Part shown: one piece after another, positions 8,623 through 62,514 of the stretch
Numbering within the stretch: position 1 is the first letter of the stretch
How the letters are laid out: each line of letters starts with the position of its first letter
Assembly (NCBI GenBank): GCA_943359525.1
Contig: CALRHV010000001.1
Coordinates: 82,195 to 146,194 of the forward strand
Direction of reading: 5' to 3'
Source of the DNA: Candidatus Uhrbacteria bacterium
Lineage (GTDB): Bacteria > Patescibacteriota > Patescibacteriia > UBA9934
Length of the DNA stretch: 64,000 nucleotides
Made by a program: the position numbers and the translations under genes
Notes under the pieces: model-generated
The model's input: the letters and a program-made list of their open reading frames with translations, nothing else
Databases searched by the model: none
What the model was told of the DNA's origin: nothing

Positions 8623-10707
<2,085 letters not shown>

Positions 10708-10787
10708 AATCTGATCTTAGACGGGTTGTGAGATTAGTGTGAAAGGCAGGGAGTGCGGGTGCTGCGACAGAAAACGGTACCCTCTGT

Positions 10788-11080
10788 TTTTGAGGTTTTA
10801 GAACTGGGCAATAGAATACGTTCTGATCCTAAAATCGAGAAATAATGAAATCGATTTCGGATCTTCGCGATCGCCGATCGTAGACGGCATTATCGACAAC
10901 CTCGTCGATCGTAAATATCGACCATCGGTTTCTTAACGCGAAATGTTCGCATTACCAAAGACCCTGTTTGAAATTGAACACCCCCTCACTCTCCTCGCCC
11001 AACTCAGGCTCGTCGAGCGTCGCCGATGATGTCATTATTGCCAACACCTCCGTCACAACCCTCCAAAGATCAGGTTCATT
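10788..11080. repeat. copy 1 of a conserved ~270-nt duplicated non-coding element (candidate structured RNA), abutting the stop codon of the minus-strand ORF 11076..11657
   Basis: Aligns by eye at roughly 75% identity over ~270 nt with 51866..52130. Shared blocks include GGTTTTA.AA..GGC.ATAGAA, GAAATCGATTTC, CGATCG.AGACGGC, GATCGT.AATAT, CTTAACGCGAAA..TTCGCATTA.CAAA..CCCTGTTTGAAAT.GAA..CCCCC, and CC.CCCG.CACA.CC.TCCAA.GATCAG.TTCA ending at a TCA/TGA stop. Confidence 0.7.
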
Positions 11081-11657
11081 CCATTTTAAACGCCAAACGC
11101 TCGAGTCCGAAGACCCGAGCGCTGCGTACTCGCCGACCGTTGCCGACGAGGGTGATGAAGGGGCCTATGAAGTGCTCAGCGAGAAGCTGAGTGATCTCTT
11201 CCTTGGCTCCACGAGCGATGATGTCGAAGGGTACCGTGTGGCCTTCCGCGTTGATGACGGCGAATCGACAGCCTTCGTGACCGTGTTTCACTGCGATGAA
11301 ACGAGTCAGCACGGAGCCAGGCATCACCTGATCTTCACCGAACATCACACGGCGAGCCTCCTGCGGAATCGCGCCGAGATCGATGACGCTGAACTCCTTC
11401 CACACGAACTTCGCGAGGTAGGCGTTCCGGATCATGTTCGCGAGCGCAGGCCAGCCGGGCTTCGCGGTGACAGGCATGAGCGGGTCGCCACGGAGAGCCT
11501 GGGCGAAGCTCATGTCAGGCGCTCCGGAGAAGAGGCGGCTGTGAGAGACGGGAATACCGAGGAGTCGGCAGAGGGACAGGGGAATGAAGTTCACGTTTTC
11601 ACCAGGGAACGGGTTAATCGAACACTTTATAATAGCATATTTCCCAATAAAAAGCAA
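11076..11657 (-). CDS. hypothetical protein; strand assignment uncertain because an exact antisense ORF 10968..11660 (+) also exists
   Basis: The stop codon sits at the same position of the duplicated element as the topIB stop in copy 2. The C-terminal half looks like a globular protein. The listed start overlaps the pilD terminator T-tract, so the true start is probably an internal Met, e.g. MSFAQ near 11513. Confidence 0.35.
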   Translation of the reverse strand: MLFIGKYAIIKCSINPFPGENVNFIPLSLCRLLGIPVSHSRLFSGAPDMSFAQALRGDPLMPVTAKPGWPALANMIRNAYLAKFVWKEFSVIDLGAIPQEARRVMFGEDQVMPGSVLTRFIAVKHGHEGCRFAVINAEGHTVPFDIIARGAKEEITQLLAEHFIGPFITLVGNGRRVRSARVFGLERLAFKME

Positions 11658-19215: not shown

Positions 19216-19228
19216 CGGATTCCTCGAA

Positions 19229-19271
19229 CGCGCTACGGCCCGGCTTCCCACGCGGGAGCCGGGCCGTTCGT
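19229..19271. repeat. 42-bp hairpin direct repeat, copy 1
   Basis: CGCGCTACGGCCCGGCTTCCCACGCGGGAGCCGGGCCGTTCGT; identical to 20095..20137; a 9-bp GC stem with a nested TCCC/GGGA stem. Confidence 0.85.
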
Positions 19272-19280
19272 CGTTTCACG

Positions 19281-20041: not shown

Positions 20042-20094
20042 AAGATACTAAAAACTCTCGATTCCCGCAATATTTTGAGTAAAATCTCCACAAT

Positions 20095-20137
20095 CGCGCT
20101 ACGGCCCGGCTTCCCACGCGGGAGCCGGGCCGTTCGT
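20095..20137. repeat. 42-bp hairpin direct repeat, copy 2
   Basis: Identical to 19229..19271. Confidence 0.85.
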
Positions 20138-20140
20138 TGT

Positions 20141-20848
20141 TCAGTTTACCTGCGCAGCACGACACGCATCTTCCAGCGCCGCGAGCGCCACAAGGACGAG
20201 AAGGATCCGGTCGATCGACTGCAGATTGTGACCATGTGCCTCCCATCCTTCGTTGTTGTCACGCGGACGGTCAATATCTGCAACCCCGAAGCATGCGCAG
20301 TTGATGCCAACCGACATGTGCAGTGTGCCGGAATATTCCTCCACCGACCGCGAACTGATGGCCGCAGAATCTCCACACATCTGACGTTCCGCTCGTATCA
20401 CCGCACTGGTGACATCTCGGAATACGTCGGCTCGTACCGCGCGGATGAACCTCGCGAATCGCCCAGACGCAGCGACGGTGATGTCGGCCACACCGTATCG
20501 CAACACCAAGGCGTCAATCCACAACAGTTGGCCGCTTGTGTCGTCTTGCAGCTCAGAAAGATCCAAACCCCGAAACGCATCGACGGCGACGCGCAAGGTT
20601 GCAAGGGCGAGCGTCGTCTTTTTCCATTCCTGCGAGCCGATGCGTGCCACGGGAATCCGCAACACCACATGACTCTCTCGACGTTCCAGTTCGTTTTCGC
20701 GGAACTCGATTCCGCCACACGTCACCGCATCAATGAGCGCCCACGTGCGCAACGTCCACGTCACCAGAACCGCGTGTCCGTCCGCCACCAACGACAACGT
20801 CGAGGCAAACGGAGGCTTCGCCTCTTTCATGCACGGTTGAAAAACCAC
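20141..20848 (-). CDS. hypothetical protein (GC-rich island)
   Basis: 235-aa ORF; the antisense ORF 20036..20872 (+) is Arg-rich and looks spurious. Confidence 0.4.
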   Translation of the reverse strand: MVFQPCMKEAKPPFASTLSLVADGHAVLVTWTLRTWALIDAVTCGGIEFRENELERRESHVVLRIPVARIGSQEWKKTTLALATLRVAVDAFRGLDLSELQDDTSGQLLWIDALVLRYGVADITVAASGRFARFIRAVRADVFRDVTSAVIRAERQMCGDSAAISSRSVEEYSGTLHMSVGINCACFGVADIDRPRDNNEGWEAHGHNLQSIDRILLVLVALAALEDACRAAQVN

Positions 20849-28130: not shown

Positions 28131-28219
28131 GTCATCCCCGCGGCCTGTCCCCCGGAGGGGGAAGGCGGGGATCCATCATTCCGAACGATCTGGATCCCCG
28201 CCTACGCGGGGATGACCAG
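28131..28219. repeat. composite of two GTCATCCCCGCG...GGGGATCC hairpin repeats (family i)
   Basis: GTCATCCCCGCGGCC-[CCCCCGGAGGGGG]-GGCGGGGATCC, then CTGGATCCCCGCCTACGCGGGGATGACCAG. Confidence 0.8.
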
Positions 28220-28238
28220 ACGGAACAAGAGATCTCGT

Positions 28239-50544: not shown

Positions 50545-51711
50545 TTACCAACGACCAGGACCGTTCGGGTTGTATCCGTTCGCAATTTCGAGGCCATCGG
50601 GATAGCTGTCGTTGTCGGAGTCGGAGTCGAAACGGTTAGTCCAGTGGATGGTCATTTCAGCGTAGTCGGTGAGACCGTCGTGATCGGAGTCGAGCTTGCC
50701 TACGCCGTTCGGATTGTAGCCGTTGATGACTTCGGTGTAGTCCGGGTATCCATCACCGTCCGTATCGGAACTGAAGGGATTCGAGTGCCAAACTGATTCC
50801 TCGTCGGTATTCGTTAAACCATCGCCATCGTTGTCCATAGCCAACATTGCATCGCCAAGACGTTCAACAGTGGCTTCGTCGGCATTCGACATGTGGTAAT
50901 TCTTGATATCGATTGCATTGGCTGGCACTGCAATATTCACCGGTGCGTTGAAGCTATTGAAGAGCACCGAAACGCCAACCGTGGTGTACGACGTAGCGCT
51001 CTGTTGCACGTTTACGTTGAGCGTGAACATTGCAGGAAGCATACTTACCGTATCAACCCAGAATGAACCGCCAATGGTGACGTGTTCTGCAAGGTATGTA
51101 CGAGCCGCGTCTTCTTCAGACGCTGGAATTAGCTTCTTTTCAACAAGATACTCAACCAAGCGGTCCGTGTTTACCGTGTAGGCATAGCGGACGGTTGGCT
51201 TCGAATTGATGAAGCCGACGGTTTCGAGGCGATAGCTTACGACTCCGCGATTGAACATGTCTTGAAGATACGACTGCATTTGCGCAACGGCTTCTTCAGT
51301 TTCTCCCGCAGTTGGATAGTTGCTCGAACTGGCGAACTTCGTGAAATACCAAATGTTCTCGTCTTGCGAGAAGTATGCGGTGTCCTGTGTGAGGATCACC
51401 GATCCATTCGATGCGTTCGACGCACCGTTTTGATCGGTCACCGAGCCAGCAAAGTTTAACCGGCCATTCTGCGTCGTACTTGAAACACCATCAAGGTCCA
51501 CGTGAACCTTTACTGGCTGATTCATGCTAGACGTGTATGTTTCCACATCAACGTCTACGCTGAAATCCACGGACTTCGCGGTGGCGACGTTTTTGAGAAG
51601 CGTAGAAGTCGAATCGCTACTCAAGACGGTGGCGGCAGACGCAAACTGCGCCGGCAGCAATACCACACTCAAAACAAGGATCGAGACACACTTTTTGATA
51701 AGGTTTTTCAT
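50545..51711 (-). CDS. secreted protein with C-terminal thrombospondin type-3-like calcium-binding Asp repeats
   Basis: Signal peptide MKNLIKKCVSILVLSVVLLPAQFASA; C-terminal DGDGLTNTDEE, DTDGDGYPDYTE, DSDHDGLTDYAE, DSDSDNDSYPDGLE repeats. Confidence 0.7.
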   Translation of the reverse strand: MKNLIKKCVSILVLSVVLLPAQFASAATVLSSDSTSTLLKNVATAKSVDFSVDVDVETYTSSMNQPVKVHVDLDGVSSTTQNGRLNFAGSVTDQNGASNASNGSVILTQDTAYFSQDENIWYFTKFASSSNYPTAGETEEAVAQMQSYLQDMFNRGVVSYRLETVGFINSKPTVRYAYTVNTDRLVEYLVEKKLIPASEEDAARTYLAEHVTIGGSFWVDTVSMLPAMFTLNVNVQQSATSYTTVGVSVLFNSFNAPVNIAVPANAIDIKNYHMSNADEATVERLGDAMLAMDNDGDGLTNTDEESVWHSNPFSSDTDGDGYPDYTEVINGYNPNGVGKLDSDHDGLTDYAEMTIHWTNRFDSDSDNDSYPDGLEIANGYNPNGPGRW

Positions 51712-51865
51712 GGGATTTGGCCAATAAATTAACCGGATAGTATAGCAAAAAAACGGCCAAAAGTCAAGGAATTTGGCTAAAGTAAGCAAAGATGTAAACC
51801 GGTTGTGGCGAACGAACCCCCGAGCCACCAGTCCGAGGTAGTGCGCCAGAAAATGATGCCCTCGT

Positions 51866-52130
51866 ATTTTGGGGTTTTAAAAAGGGGCGATAGAACGTGT
51901 TGTGATGCTGTAATCAATGAAAAGCGAAATCGATTTCAAAATGCGTGACCGGCGATCGGAGACGGCTTCATCGCGAGCCGAACGGATCGTCAATATGAGC
52001 CAGTGCTTCCTTAACGCGAAACTTTCGCATTAGCAAAACACCCTGTTTGAAATCGAATGCCCCCGCTCTCGACAATCGTGTTTGTGATCATCACTCCCGC
52101 CACATCCATCCAAGATCAGTTCAGGCCTTC
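51866..52130. repeat. copy 2 of the conserved ~270-nt duplicated non-coding element, abutting the topIB stop codon
   Basis: See copy 1 (10788..11080). Confidence 0.7.
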
Positions 52131-53120
52131 CAACACCTTCATCAACCCAACTTCATGAACGTGGAGTAATGGATATTTCTTTCGCAATGATTCATTCGGA
52201 GCGTGCCAGGTGAGCTTTCCTTTGGCGTAGAGCGAAAGCACTTTCGGATGAATATAGGATTTTTTGCAGACGACGACGGTGTTGCCGAGGGCATCTGCAG
52301 CGCGTTGAATCGCGGCTTTCACATTCTGTTGTATTTCTCGTTTCGTCTCAACGGCCGGCCGATCCCAAAGATACGACGCGACGATGACGGTGCCGTGCCA
52401 GGTACGAAAATCTTTGGCGGTAATCTCTTCCTTCGAAATCGATTTCAGATACTCGTTGACGTCTTCCGATTGGACATCATGCGGCTTACCCTCGTGATCG
52501 AGATACTCAAAAAGCTTCTGTCCAGGAATATCGTGGCACGTTGCGACGATCTTCCGGATTCGCTCATCCTCGATGGGAAATTCGTGCGCGATCCCATCCT
52601 TCCCATCGAACGCAAGTCCCATGTACTCCCCCGTTCCCTTCACGTGCCGATTCCGCAACGTCGTCAAACCGAATGAGTGATTATCTTTCGCATACTCCTC
52701 ATTGCCGATGCGAATGAATGCCGTATCTAATAGCTCAACGATCGCTGCGAGCACCTTGTCTTTTGGTATCCCTCGAAGGCGCAAGTCGTGATCAACTCGA
52801 CGACGAATGCGGGAGAGCGATACCGCAAACTCGTTCATCCGATGAAACTTCCCCTCATTCTGCTTCGCGATCCAGTCGTGATGATAGATGTATTGTTTTC
52901 TATTTCGCGCGTCGATCGCCGTTGCTTGAATATGGCCGTTTGCAAACGGGCAGATCCACACGCTGGAATACGCCGGAGGAATGCCAAGGGAACGAATGCG
53001 AGCCAAAACGTTTGCGTTTCGGATCTTTCGTCCCTTTTCGTCGCGATATACCACACCAAACCAACCCTTTGTTCGGGTAAAGCCGGGAATCGTATCAATC
53101 ACGTATCGGAGTCGCATCAC
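52116..53120 (-). CDS. DNA topoisomerase IB (poxvirus-like bacterial TopIB)
   Basis: 334 aa; catalytic-domain layout with the active-site Tyr in KKSYIHP near the C-terminus and conserved Arg/Lys/His positions. Confidence 0.75.
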   Translation of the reverse strand: MMRLRYVIDTIPGFTRTKGWFGVVYRDEKGRKIRNANVLARIRSLGIPPAYSSVWICPFANGHIQATAIDARNRKQYIYHHDWIAKQNEGKFHRMNEFAVSLSRIRRRVDHDLRLRGIPKDKVLAAIVELLDTAFIRIGNEEYAKDNHSFGLTTLRNRHVKGTGEYMGLAFDGKDGIAHEFPIEDERIRKIVATCHDIPGQKLFEYLDHEGKPHDVQSEDVNEYLKSISKEEITAKDFRTWHGTVIVASYLWDRPAVETKREIQQNVKAAIQRAADALGNTVVVCKKSYIHPKVLSLYAKGKLTWHAPNESLRKKYPLLHVHEVGLMKVLEGLN

Positions 53121-53458
53121 TGTAGTATATCCTGTTTCGCTACAACGTATGTCGTTTGCGCGTCCTGCCGATGCATTGCAGTTGCTCGCACGCTACGGTA
53201 TTGGCATAACTTTGAGCAATCTCACGTTGGTGCCAATCCACACGACGTCAATTCGCGCAGTGCCCTTCTTTTCACAGGCACCACTTGGGGATTGGTATGA
53301 TCCTCGTCAAAGCGAAGGACGCGACATCATCACGGCTATGTTGTAGTTTTTGTTAATTATCCTTCTGGCGACTACGTACCCGTTACCCCAATGCCAACGG
53401 CAATGATTATTATCAAGCCGGAATAGCATGGTAAAATGCTCATAATCATTCTTGGATT

Positions 53459-57161: not shown

Positions 57162-57439
57162 ATCGTTTCAGTCATGCTGAGCGTTAGCGAAGCATCTCTC
57201 GCAGGGTATCTGGATTACCTACGGGAGATTCTTCACTTCGTTCAGAATGACGAACAGAATTCGAAATGCTATAGTTTTCCCATATGGAATGTCCAAAATG
57301 TCATCGTGCAACAACGGGGATCAAAACCGATACCACAAAAGGAAGGCACGGCGAGGTGTATGTTCGCGAAGCATCGCGATGTCCGCGATGCGATGTGTGG
57401 GTGACGGTCGAGACACCGAAAGAAGCCAAGGAATAACAA

Positions 57440-60773: not shown

Positions 60774-60785
60774 AATGCTATTTCC

Positions 60786-60869
60786 GTCATCCTGAACGAA
60801 GTGAAGGATCTCTCGCAGGTGATCCGGACTAACCTACGAGAGATTCTTCGCTACGCTCAGAATGACTGA
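60786..60869. repeat. family (ii) long imperfect inverted-repeat hairpin, copy B
   Basis: GTCATCCTGAACGAAGTGAAGGATCTCTCGCAGG-15 nt-CCTACGAGAGATTCTTCGCTACGCTCAGAATGACTGA. Confidence 0.85.
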
Positions 60870-60894: not shown

Positions 60895-62241
60895 CTAAAC
60901 CACCAGCGGCAAATTCCGCCATACCTTTTCGTCGCCACGCAATAACGACTCCACTCGGTACGCGCCATGCGTTGGTGCATTCGTAAATCCACTCCACGCC
61001 ATGCGTGCCAATGCGCCACTATCGATCCAATCGAACAGCCACTCATTCATGTACTGCGGCGCAAGGCCATCAGCGCCACCACCAACGTACGTTAACCATG
61101 CGCGATTGAAATCCTCCTGACTTCCAACAGTCGGCGCCATAATAATCGGAATCGCTAAGCCGGTGTAGAACGAAAGCTCCGACGGTTTGGTCCAAAGAAT
61201 ATCTGTCTTGCGCATCAGCGTCGCGAATGCCGAAAAATAATCCGGACGATTGTCTTCGAAAAGGATCGTCACCTTCCCCGCGCGCTTTGCACTCACCAAT
61301 CCGTCCAGCCGAATCTCGCGTTCAAAAAATTCATTCACTTCCGGTCGCGTTCCTGCAACAAGGTTTACGATGATTCGTCCTGCACGGATATCGGAAGCCA
61401 ATGACCGGAGAGCTAAAGCAACAAGCTCGCGCTGCGTTCCCGCACCGCCAACAGCAAACGTGATCGATGGCGTGGTTGGCTTGATTGCACAAAATGGCTT
61501 TCCAAATGTTGCGTCCAGAAGCGCATGCGCTTTTGCAACGAAATTTCCACGCGGATCAAGGTTGCACATGCGACGCTGCAAATCGGCTCGCACATATTCT
61601 GGCGAGTGCGCGCCGCCAATCGTTTCGTACGGTAACGGAAAACCCGTCAGCGTAATATTTTTTTCTTTGACGCCGTACAACTTTAAACGCTCAACAACGC
61701 GACCGGTCGGCGCCAAGTATTTGATTCTGCTTTTCTTTGGATTCAGCGGCACCCAAGCACGAGCAATGTCTGCATCGCAAAGAACAATGTAGATGTCTTC
61801 TGGATAATCGAGTTCCTCCGCGGCAAAGGCTGGGGTAAAGAATGTTGAAACGATTGGAAGTGGATTTTCCTTGAATCGCTTGATCAGGTCATGGCACATC
61901 CCCTGACTATGAATAAGCGCGTATGTTTGTCTAACTTGTAAACTCGGTTTCGATAAATCGCGCTTGGGATAGAACTCCGGAATACGCTGCATCTTATCCA
62001 TTAAACCGAACGTTGCCGATCCCAGAATTGGCACGTTCTTGAACCGCGACACAAATTCGTAGAAGCTTTTTCCCGTTTCCCAAAGTCTCCGTTCATGAGC
62101 CGGAATTCCCGGATAATCATTCGCAACCGTTACCTGTTTACCAGGAGCAAGGTGCCGCAACGCAAAAGCGGCCCGTTCATGGCCATAGCCCATATTGACG
62201 GCAACCACGTGCGCCAATGCTTTCCCCCTTTTTTCCTCCAT
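60895..62241 (-). CDS. GT-B fold glycosyltransferase (MGDG synthase/UgtP/MurG-like, GT28-like)
   Basis: N-terminal HVVAVNMGYGHERAAFAL motif; bracketed by direct copies of the family (ii) hairpin. Confidence 0.45.
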   Translation of the reverse strand: MEEKRGKALAHVVAVNMGYGHERAAFALRHLAPGKQVTVANDYPGIPAHERRLWETGKSFYEFVSRFKNVPILGSATFGLMDKMQRIPEFYPKRDLSKPSLQVRQTYALIHSQGMCHDLIKRFKENPLPIVSTFFTPAFAAEELDYPEDIYIVLCDADIARAWVPLNPKKSRIKYLAPTGRVVERLKLYGVKEKNITLTGFPLPYETIGGAHSPEYVRADLQRRMCNLDPRGNFVAKAHALLDATFGKPFCAIKPTTPSITFAVGGAGTQRELVALALRSLASDIRAGRIIVNLVAGTRPEVNEFFEREIRLDGLVSAKRAGKVTILFEDNRPDYFSAFATLMRKTDILWTKPSELSFYTGLAIPIIMAPTVGSQEDFNRAWLTYVGGGADGLAPQYMNEWLFDWIDSGALARMAWSGFTNAPTHGAYRVESLLRGDEKVWRNLPLVV

Positions 62242-62250
62242 ACTTTTGCA

Positions 62251-62331
62251 GTCATCCTGAACGGAGTGAAGGATCTCTCGCAGGTCATCCGAATACCCTA
62301 CGGAGATTCTTCGCTTCGCTCAGAATGACTG
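62251..62331. repeat. family (ii) inverted-repeat hairpin, copy C, directly 5' of the GT-B gene start
   Basis: GTCATCCTGAACGGAGTGAAGGATCTCTCGCAGG-...-CCTACGGAGATTCTTCGCTTCGCTCAGAATGACTGA. Confidence 0.85.
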
Positions 62332-62402
62332 AACGTGAATTGCGTCAATTCATTTAGGAGAAGTATAGCAAGAAAACTTTTACACGATTCACTTTCCGCA
62401 GC

Positions 62403-62514
62403 GTCATCCCCGCGCAGGCGGGGATCCAGAGTGTTCTGAATGAAGATCGTGTCAGTATTCATCCCAAAAATTCTTCAATGTATTCTGGATCCCCGCCTGC
62501 GCGGGGATGACCAG
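62403..62514. repeat. inverted pair of family (i) repeats with a 55-nt spacer
   Basis: GTCATCCCCGCGCAGGCGGGGATCCAG at 62403..62429 and CTGGATCCCCGCCTGCGCGGGGATGACCAG at 62485..62514. Confidence 0.85.

Follow-up and report, generated by a model that had tools for sequence, protein, structure and literature searches.

The TopIB gene and its 3' end

The stretch of DNA described here (the window) comprises 64,000 nt of contig CALRHV010000001.1 from Candidatus Uhrbacteria assembly GCA_943359525.1 (positions 82,195 to 146,194 of the forward strand); its TopIB and LigA homologues place the lineage among Uhrbacteria-like Patescibacteria. The window contains two copies of a previously undescribed non-coding repeat of ~350 bases, one overlapping the end of the gene for a type IB DNA topoisomerase (TopIB), the other lying between an open reading frame (ORF) of unknown function and ligA. 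Each copy adjoins the stop codon of an upstream co-oriented ORF. In a repeat search of the window the copies appear as two collinear blocks (10758-10959 and 51837-52037) with 73% identity, and both score E ~1e-95 against a profile of the family, far beyond chance. This bears out the duplicated conserved element of a preliminary description of this DNA, although the size given there, ~270 nt, is too small: copy 2 spans ~340 nt and family members ~340-390 nt. The features at TopIB are as follows.

52116..53120, minus strand: TopIB, 334 aa (ORF list, Pfam, alignment to PDB 2F4Q, C-terminus compared with element-free orthologues)
51788..52127 (340 nt), minus strand: element copy 2, with type A core, between TopIB and the promoter of the TSP3-repeat protein gene (nhmmer envelope 52127-51771; right boundary where homology to the region upstream of the L101 TSP3 gene resumes)
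52065..52127, minus strand: left (5') arm of copy 2, cCTGAACTGATCTTGGATGGATGTGGCGGGAG..., overlapping the TopIB stop codon (copy alignments, stop-frame scan)
51835..52064, minus strand: type A core of copy 2, 230 nt, GGGGGCATTCGATTTCAAACAGGGT ... GCGCACTACCTC (core alignment, identity matrix, consensus folds)
51788..51834, minus strand: right (3') arm of copy 2, degenerate (sequence, minimum free energy (MFE) fold)
51739..51767, minus strand: sigma-70-type promoter (TTGACT, 17 nt, TG-n-TATACT) of the TSP3-repeat gene, outside the element (promoter scan)

TopIB matches the Pfam families Topoisom_I (PF01028, 7.8e-36) and Top1B_N_bact (PF21338, 9.7e-21), both beyond the curated cut-offs, and aligns with Deinococcus radiodurans TopIB (2F4Q) at E=1e-49, without gaps around the active site. 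Arg137, Lys174, Arg239, Asn280 and Tyr289, the last within KKSYIHP, face identical residues of 2F4Q at the positions of its catalytic pentad. The protein therefore is what it had been called from the outset, a poxvirus-like bacterial TopIB with the active-site tyrosine in KKSYIHP. It resembles the D. radiodurans enzyme in length class (334 vs 346 aa), in its two domains and in all five catalytic residues; the sole oddity of the window gene is that its final residues, GLN, and its stop codon are encoded by the inserted repeat.

Homologues of TopIB within Patescibacteria/Uhrbacteria form a smooth gradient of identity (85, 84, 83, 79, 73, 69 and so on down to 54%). TopIB and LigA homologues are both listed on contigs of 746,512, 1,085,513, 394,144 and 586,346 nt, suggesting that the two genes reside together in relatives. 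The neighborhood is partly syntenic in L001 and L004 (relatives are designated by numbered loci): a 939-aa gene is common to the window and L001, and pyrH lies near TopIB in L001, L004, L101, and L102. There is no compositional island around TopIB, where the GC content equals that of the flanks. Because of the gradient, the probable co-residence with LigA, the partial synteny and the matching GC content, TopIB looks like an ordinary intact gene, inherited vertically in Uhrbacteria with local rearrangement, and not like the recent horizontal acquisition that had been suspected. Upstream, pyrH and a 251-aa gene, which precede TopIB in four of four relatives (L001, L004, L101, L102), are missing in the window (at 53121-53458), where TopIB is directly divergent from the 939-aa gene. 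The locus has therefore been rearranged on both sides of TopIB.

The 3' region of TopIB was compared between the window and seven other orthologues (L001, L002, L003, L004, L005, L101, L102). The element is present in two of the eight, the window and L004, and missing in L001, L002, L003, L005, L101, and L102. The closest element-free orthologues (L001, L101, L102; 83-85% identity) end in ...GLMQLLEK(L/I)-stop, the element-bearing proteins of the window and L004 in ...LE(G/D)LN-stop, with the new codons inside the arm. The last codons of the window gene, CTG AAC TGA (52124-52116; TGA 52116-52118), lie within the outer part of the left-arm consensus, and the earlier statement that the TopIB stop codon opens the element is essentially right: the TGA and the two preceding codons belong to the outer left arm. 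The comparison shows a replacement, in the lineage of the window and L004, of ...EK(L/I)-stop by ...E(G/D)LN-stop through the arm.

Farther downstream, L101 and L102 have 2.3-8 kb of DNA, with five to eleven genes on the minus strand, between TopIB and the TSP3-protein gene. These genes are missing from the entire window and from L004, and the element is placed exactly at the junction; L004 has the order TopIB, element, TSP3-repeat protein gene and is syntenic with the window. The TSP3 gene has a strong promoter of its own right after the element, and this promoter is kept in L004, L101, and L102. Judged by this gene order, the element marks a putative deletion junction at TopIB, while nothing points to a functional tie between the two. 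The preliminary description had counted against itself a TopIB that is vertically conserved together with an element absent from all orthologous 3' regions. Vertical conservation is what the comparison suggests, whereas the orthologous regions are not all empty, since one of the seven others (L004) carries the element.

Architecture and distribution of the element family

Copies of the element were gathered from TopIB loci of GTDB species representatives, from a pattern scan of metagenome contigs and from contigs with close LigA or TopIB homologues, and were detected with the family profile (nhmmer); a separate arm profile was used for the element ends. Alignment of all copies resolves two ~45-nt inverted-repeat arms around a 230-nt core, termed type A. 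The arm consensus is ..TCTGAAcTGATCCTTTGAGGGGTTGGGcGGGAGTGAGGGGG; the left arm, with the consensus ..TCTGAAcTGATCCTTTGAG.., opens as ..TCTGAAcTGATCCTTTGAG-GGGTTGGG..., the core extends from GGGGGYATTCGATTTCAAACAGGGT through ...GAGGGTATCGTTTTCTG-CGCA-TACCCC, and the right arm repeats the left in inverted orientation (..CAACCC-TCAAAGGATCAG). Blastn self-comparisons recovered such inverted repeats, 20-100 nt in length, for example 64-88 vs 434-410 in the copy 1 region and 83-183 vs 560-461 in L087 (9400-10010), both in coordinates of the extracted sub-region, and the arm profile matches both element ends. In copy 2, the right arm pairs with the left solely via GTGGCG/CGCCAC and GATG/CATC, and the core, which is the well-aligned part of the element, begins ~50 nt past the TopIB stop codon.

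Most arms contain TGA in all three frames within ~26 nt, and the remaining arms in two frames, according to a stop-codon frame scan. Because of these stop codons, ORFs that enter the element end at its edge, as seen for TopIB, for the 193-aa ORF before copy 1 and for recJ in L091. The element itself is non-coding, given that no ORF is shared between copies and that they differ by 1-nt indels; a small protein-coding ORF was considered and is ruled out by these indels and by frame differences between copies.

Copy 1 adds further parts to this plan.

10700..11078, perhaps extending to 10632, minus strand: element copy 1, with type A core, between ORF 11076-11657 and ligA (nhmmer 11083-10700, sequence)
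11019-11078, minus strand: left arm of copy 1 (sequence)
10987-11018, minus strand: boxX of copy 1 (sequence)
10756-10985, minus strand: core of copy 1 (sequence), followed by an inner right arm ending at 10711
10632..10710, minus strand: nested D1 REP-like repeat (10661-10710), then the outer right arm, ..CTCAACCCCTCCAAAGAATCAGTTCAG (repeat search; arm profile 10628-10674)
11076..11657, minus strand: 193-aa ORF, function unknown, with its TGA in the left arm of copy 1 (ORF list)
8623..10599, minus strand: ligA, NAD-dependent DNA ligase, downstream of copy 1 (ORF list; homologues with Pfam domains)

As had been noted, the second copy thus ends a gene of unknown function next to ligA. The 193-aa ORF is a genuine yet poorly conserved gene: L094 has a 197-aa gene in the equivalent place that is 37% identical to it but offers no counterpart for its C-terminal ~35 of 193 aa. 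The outer right arm of copy 1 corresponds to the right end of the elements in L087 and L092, and ligA has its own conserved promoter (TGCTACCAT) after the element. BoxX, an optional 32-nt box (GCTCGACGAGCCTGAGTTGGGCGAGGAGAGTG) between left arm and core, occurs only in some copies. It is found at 10987-11018 on the minus strand of the window, in L083, L087 (two inverted copies), L092, L089, and L100, and also alone at other loci; it is therefore another independent small repeat. In L004 (3999-4040), two left-arm starts follow the TopIB stop codon in tandem, TGATCTTGGATTGAGGGAGA and then CTGATCCTTTGAGTGGG, mirroring the doubled right arm of copy 1, a hint that insertion or recombination has happened more than once at the arms.

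Identical arms also bracket other cores. A type B core of ~110 nt, which is palindromic, is found upstream of ligA in L089, L096, and L099, and a third core, type C, directly follows the recJ stop codon in L091. Since the same arms surround unrelated cores, it is the arms that define the family, and the core is exchangeable. These elements are located at L089 9660-9820, L096 240-410, L099 8160-8335 and 2188-2356, and L091 5183-5450. The type B core includes a perfect 13-bp palindrome made of TGTATTACA repeats, and the type C core contains AAATGTTAACTCCAGTTAACATTT palindromes, with the recJ stop codon of L091 inside the arm.

The type A copies detected number five to eight; they are spread over the window, L004, L081, L083, L087, L092, and L098 and occupy four different genomic contexts. 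Besides the TopIB site, they lie between a minus-strand small gene and the divergent relA/spoT gene in L081, without a co-oriented upstream gene, after a penicillin-binding-protein (PBP) gene in the truncated locus L083, and upstream of ligA in L087/L088, L092/L093, and the degraded L098. Two genomes, the window's and GCA_943354605.1, the single assembly to which both L092 and L004 belong, have two copies each, one at TopIB and one at ligA. The region upstream of ligA carries type A, type B or neither. No profile match was obtained upstream of ligA in L094, L090, L091, and L100; in L094, whose LigA is 91% identical to that of the window, an inverted pair of REP-like repeats related to D1 stands there instead. 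Several independent assemblies break in or just upstream of the repeat near ligA: the L088 contig starts inside the element, and L092/L093 and L096/L097 start ~0.4-1.2 kb upstream of ligA, as expected for a sequence that is multicopy or rearranging. These comparisons show a family that occupies non-homologous intergenic sites and whose presence, orientation and core differ between close relatives.

The preliminary description had proposed that the element moves or duplicates together with the 3' ends of genes or acts as a shared 3' regulatory module, which would control stability or termination of the upstream transcript. Five arm-bearing elements do follow a co-oriented ORF with its stop codon in or beside the arm (TopIB in the window and in L004, the 193-aa ORF, the PBP gene in L083 and recJ in L091), and TopIB lacks a separate intrinsic terminator. 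However, the upstream flanks of different copies have nothing in common beyond the arm and share no gene-derived sequence, the genes around the element in L081 are divergent, the element is inverted at ligA in L087 and L092, and it is missing from six of the seven other TopIB orthologues. Moreover, it offers no terminator-like hairpin with a T-tract, and its folding stability is weak. Movement along with gene ends can be set aside in favor of an element that brings its own stop codons, and we regard a module that duplicates with gene 3' ends as quite improbable, while a shared role as a structure in the 3' untranslated region (3'-UTR) would be possible.

The orientation of the element differs at ligA as well. 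Upstream of this gene the window and L098 have it in sense orientation, L087 and L092 in the opposite one. Compared with the window, L087 has only the core inverted, its flanks and left arm keeping their orientation, whereas in L092 the inversion covers the whole element. With inverted repeats of 20-100 nt on either side of the core, this raises the idea of an invertible DNA switch (inverton), in which a site-specific recombinase would flip the core between the arms, in its most speculative form TopIB itself acting at a (C/T)CCTT-like arm motif. TCCTT is present in several arms and resembles the cleavage pentamer of poxvirus TopIB. Yet the arms of both window copies have ATCTT instead, TopIB adjoins just two of the eight type A copies, the core has no conserved internal promoter, and a Pfam scan of 35 window ORFs returned no invertase. 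LigA of L087 and L092 are 93% identical to each other, and each is 90-91% identical to that of the window. As they are each other's closest relatives, a single inversion in their common ancestor would be enough to explain the orientations. An inverton therefore seems highly unlikely to us. Known invertons, which act as phase-variable invertible promoters, likewise have a core bounded by inverted repeats and occur in both orientations at one locus among relatives; the element differs from them in having neither an internal promoter nor a nearby invertase and in an orientation that varies between species, for which one event suffices.

Conservation and possible RNA structure of the core

Leaving aside the degraded L098, any two type A cores are 68-82% identical, and copies at the same locus do not group together. 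For comparison, identity between these genomes is only 48-58% at the four-fold degenerate positions of TopIB, LigA and the TSP3 protein. Approximately half of the core positions are near-invariant, and invariant blocks alternate with variable stretches. Because core identity exceeds that of the four-fold sites, the comparison suggests that the core is under constraint; alternatively, the element may have spread more recently than the hosts split. The core holds three TCGATTTC repeats and many GATC/CGATCG sites, which could equally well be protein-binding sites.

One explanation of this pattern is that the type A core constitutes a new family of structured non-coding RNA genes, with the arms as a long closing helix and the copies as paralogous RNA genes instead of mobile DNA. 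Near-invariant blocks alternating with variable stretches and a conservation beyond the four-fold sites speak for such genes. Covariation is convincing in hairpin A (TAATGCGAA...TTCGCGTTA), whose stem stays paired despite G-C to A-U and U-G/U-A/C-G changes, with free variation in the loop. On the 7-sequence alignment A7, S1, a full model carried over from an earlier consensus fold, pairs 92.7% of cells compared to 90.1 +/- 0.7 in shuffled alignments (0/500), with a covariation score of 0.171 compared to 0.135 (0/500) and 13 cells changed on both sides compared to 6.9 expected (1/500). However, the alignment consists of six to seven related sequences only, for which 5-25% of cases give comparable shuffle outcomes even when there is no structure, and the consensus fold shifts when sequences are added. 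Sense and antisense consensus folds are equally good in energy (-39.4 vs -38.2 kcal/mol) and have the same G-U count (53 vs 53), favoring neither strand. Folding is weak by MFE z-score (copy 2, -0.58 and -0.10; L004, -2.08 and -1.47), no conserved promoter or terminator brackets the core, and type B and type C elements have the arms without this core. A search of Rfam 15 gave no match at gathering thresholds and, extended to E 10, only chance snoRNA matches at E >2. The evidence for RNA structure is thus modest and the case for a structured RNA weak, and we consider a family of RNA genes unlikely.

Several more specific assignments were tried and rejected. The GGGGG...UUCGA 5' end suggested a tmRNA- or tRNA-like molecule, for which Rfam is empty, ARAGORN found no tRNA or tmRNA in the element, and other copies do not conserve the stretch of copy 2 that resembles a T arm. 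A riboswitch or leader of the downstream gene does not fit, as the downstream genes are unrelated (ligA, TSP3, relA/spoT), their promoters follow the element, and its orientation is reversed in L087 and L092. A strand call from G-U vs A-C counts (52:11, favoring sense) proved to be a selection artefact, the antisense fold having the same G-U count.

Conservation of the core could also be combined with mobility of the arms. In that case, purifying selection would maintain the type A core, either as a new structured RNA or as a module for specific protein binding, carried as cargo of a core-swapping inverted-repeat cassette. We regard this combination, too, as doubtful.

A probable family of mosaic intergenic repeats

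On balance, we lean towards a new family of mosaic intergenic repeats specific to a subclade of Uhrbacteria, similar to miniature inverted-repeat transposable elements (MITEs) and to the mosaic repeats known as BIMEs, one member of which reached the 3' end of TopIB by insertion or recombination, closed the gene with a stop codon of the repeat and now marks the deletion junction. Bacterial MITEs and mosaic intergenic repeats include Correia/NEMIS elements of Neisseria, ERIC, RUP and the BIMEs of E. coli. Like these, the element is a short non-coding sequence in the range of 100-400 nt with terminal inverted repeats and several copies per genome, it lies in intergenic and non-homologous sites, often at gene ends, and its presence at orthologous sites is polymorphic between relatives. 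It shares their mosaic make-up, here with boxX and D1 nested or adjoining, and is likely to be co-transcribed with neighboring genes.

According to this model of a mosaic repeat family, recombination or transposition acting on the arms would let copies spread or swap cores. An insertion at a gene end would be tolerated as any reading frame that enters an arm is stopped there. In transcripts that continue past TopIB, arms and core hairpins might fold into a 3'-UTR stem-loop with a possible role in transcript termination or protection, and the type A core would be kept by selection for a sequence-specific role, either as a protein-binding site or as RNA.

Several observations weigh against this model. 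No direct repeat is evident at the ends, and a target-site duplication could not be identified because there is no clean empty site either at TopIB, which is a deletion junction, or at ligA, which is always occupied or rearranged. No autonomous element or transposase with matching ends was found in the window or, by arm scans, in 103 collected loci. The 35 scanned window ORFs include no recombinase or transposase, and TopIB is the only strand-transferase found; the lone Y1 transposase, that of L087, has another repeat on its flanks. The copies are old (<=80% identity within a genome) and reveal no recent burst. That the element persists near ligA in several species could reflect vertical retention just as well as repeated insertion, and mobility alone does not explain the conservation of the core. 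With regard to a terminating or stabilizing role, no intrinsic terminator (GC-rich hairpin plus T-tract) lies on either strand of 51600-52300, and the MFE z-scores point to weak folding. The element thus works like MITE/BIME elements rather than as a proven transposon, its membership among MITEs being incomplete because neither a target-site duplication nor an autonomous partner was found. It further differs from typical representatives in its low apparent copy number (two in 64 kb), in old, diverged copies (68-82% identity) that are not near-identical, in a 230-nt core conserved above the neutral level, in arms that bracket unrelated cores and in its host, a streamlined genome of the candidate phyla radiation. 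A full-text literature search returned no description of such elements in Patescibacteria.

The element may also be compared to repetitive extragenic palindromic (REP) sequences, their REPIN doublets and the associated RAYT transposases. Two inverted copies of a short motif with a spacer, able to form a long hairpin, are common to both, other REP-like palindromes (D1, I1) are abundant in the same genomes, and L087 contains a Y1_Tnp gene. In contrast to REPINs, the spacer of the element is 110-280 nt long and conserved. The gene in L087 (4657-5295) encodes an IS200/RAYT-like Y1 transposase and lies between the RNase H and pilM genes with AAAGCTAAGCTTTAACA on both sides; as it is flanked by this sequence and not by the arms, a link between the element and a RAYT/Y1 transposase was rejected. 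None of the Pfam-scanned window ORFs is a Y1 transposase, and the gap between recJ and pilM in the window, which corresponds to the Y1 site of L087, leaves no room for one. A phage or plasmid origin was rejected as well: blastn against phage and plasmid collections gave no match to the element, and the only hit from three pattern scans of viral contigs is a chance match of 22-29 nt (AAAACCCCAAAAAAAGAGGGT) in L103 (8470-8498), which lies between two phage promoters and is not homologous to the element.

Other repeats accompany the family in the window. The D1 REP-like family (GTCATCCTGAaCGaAGtGAAGGATCTCTCGCAGG) has at least five copies, at 10663-10714, 60775-60826 and 62240-62291 on the plus strand and at ~62305 and 57209-57252 on the minus strand, the first of them nested in the right end of element copy 1. 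Approximately six copies of the palindromic REP-like family I1 (GTCATCCCCGCGnAGGCGGGGATCC) are found at ~28176-28225, 29211, 38424, 45529, 62394-62443 and 62487, and I1 also occurs as inverted pairs in L089 and L092. A GC-rich, terminator-like hairpin (GGCCCGGCTTCCCACGCGGGAGCCGGGCC) is present at 19221-19275 and 20087-20141, 93% identical and 866 nt apart, where the ORFs have no Pfam match.

For TopIB, the outcome is deflationary, as the gene is an ordinary, vertically inherited one. Genomes of the candidate phyla radiation (Patescibacteria) are ~1 Mb in size and are regarded as containing few repeats and little mobile DNA. The presence of a diverged yet conserved inverted-repeat family would show that mosaic intergenic repeats persist in such genomes, where they shape gene order, as marked by the deletion junction, can cap genes with their own stop codons and cause assembly breaks. 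If the core turns out to be an RNA or a binding site, it would represent a new functional non-coding module in an uncultivated lineage. Should the core-swapping cassette prove true, what look like junk repeats in these streamlined genomes would instead be a small, maintained family of non-coding modules that are both mobile and functional.

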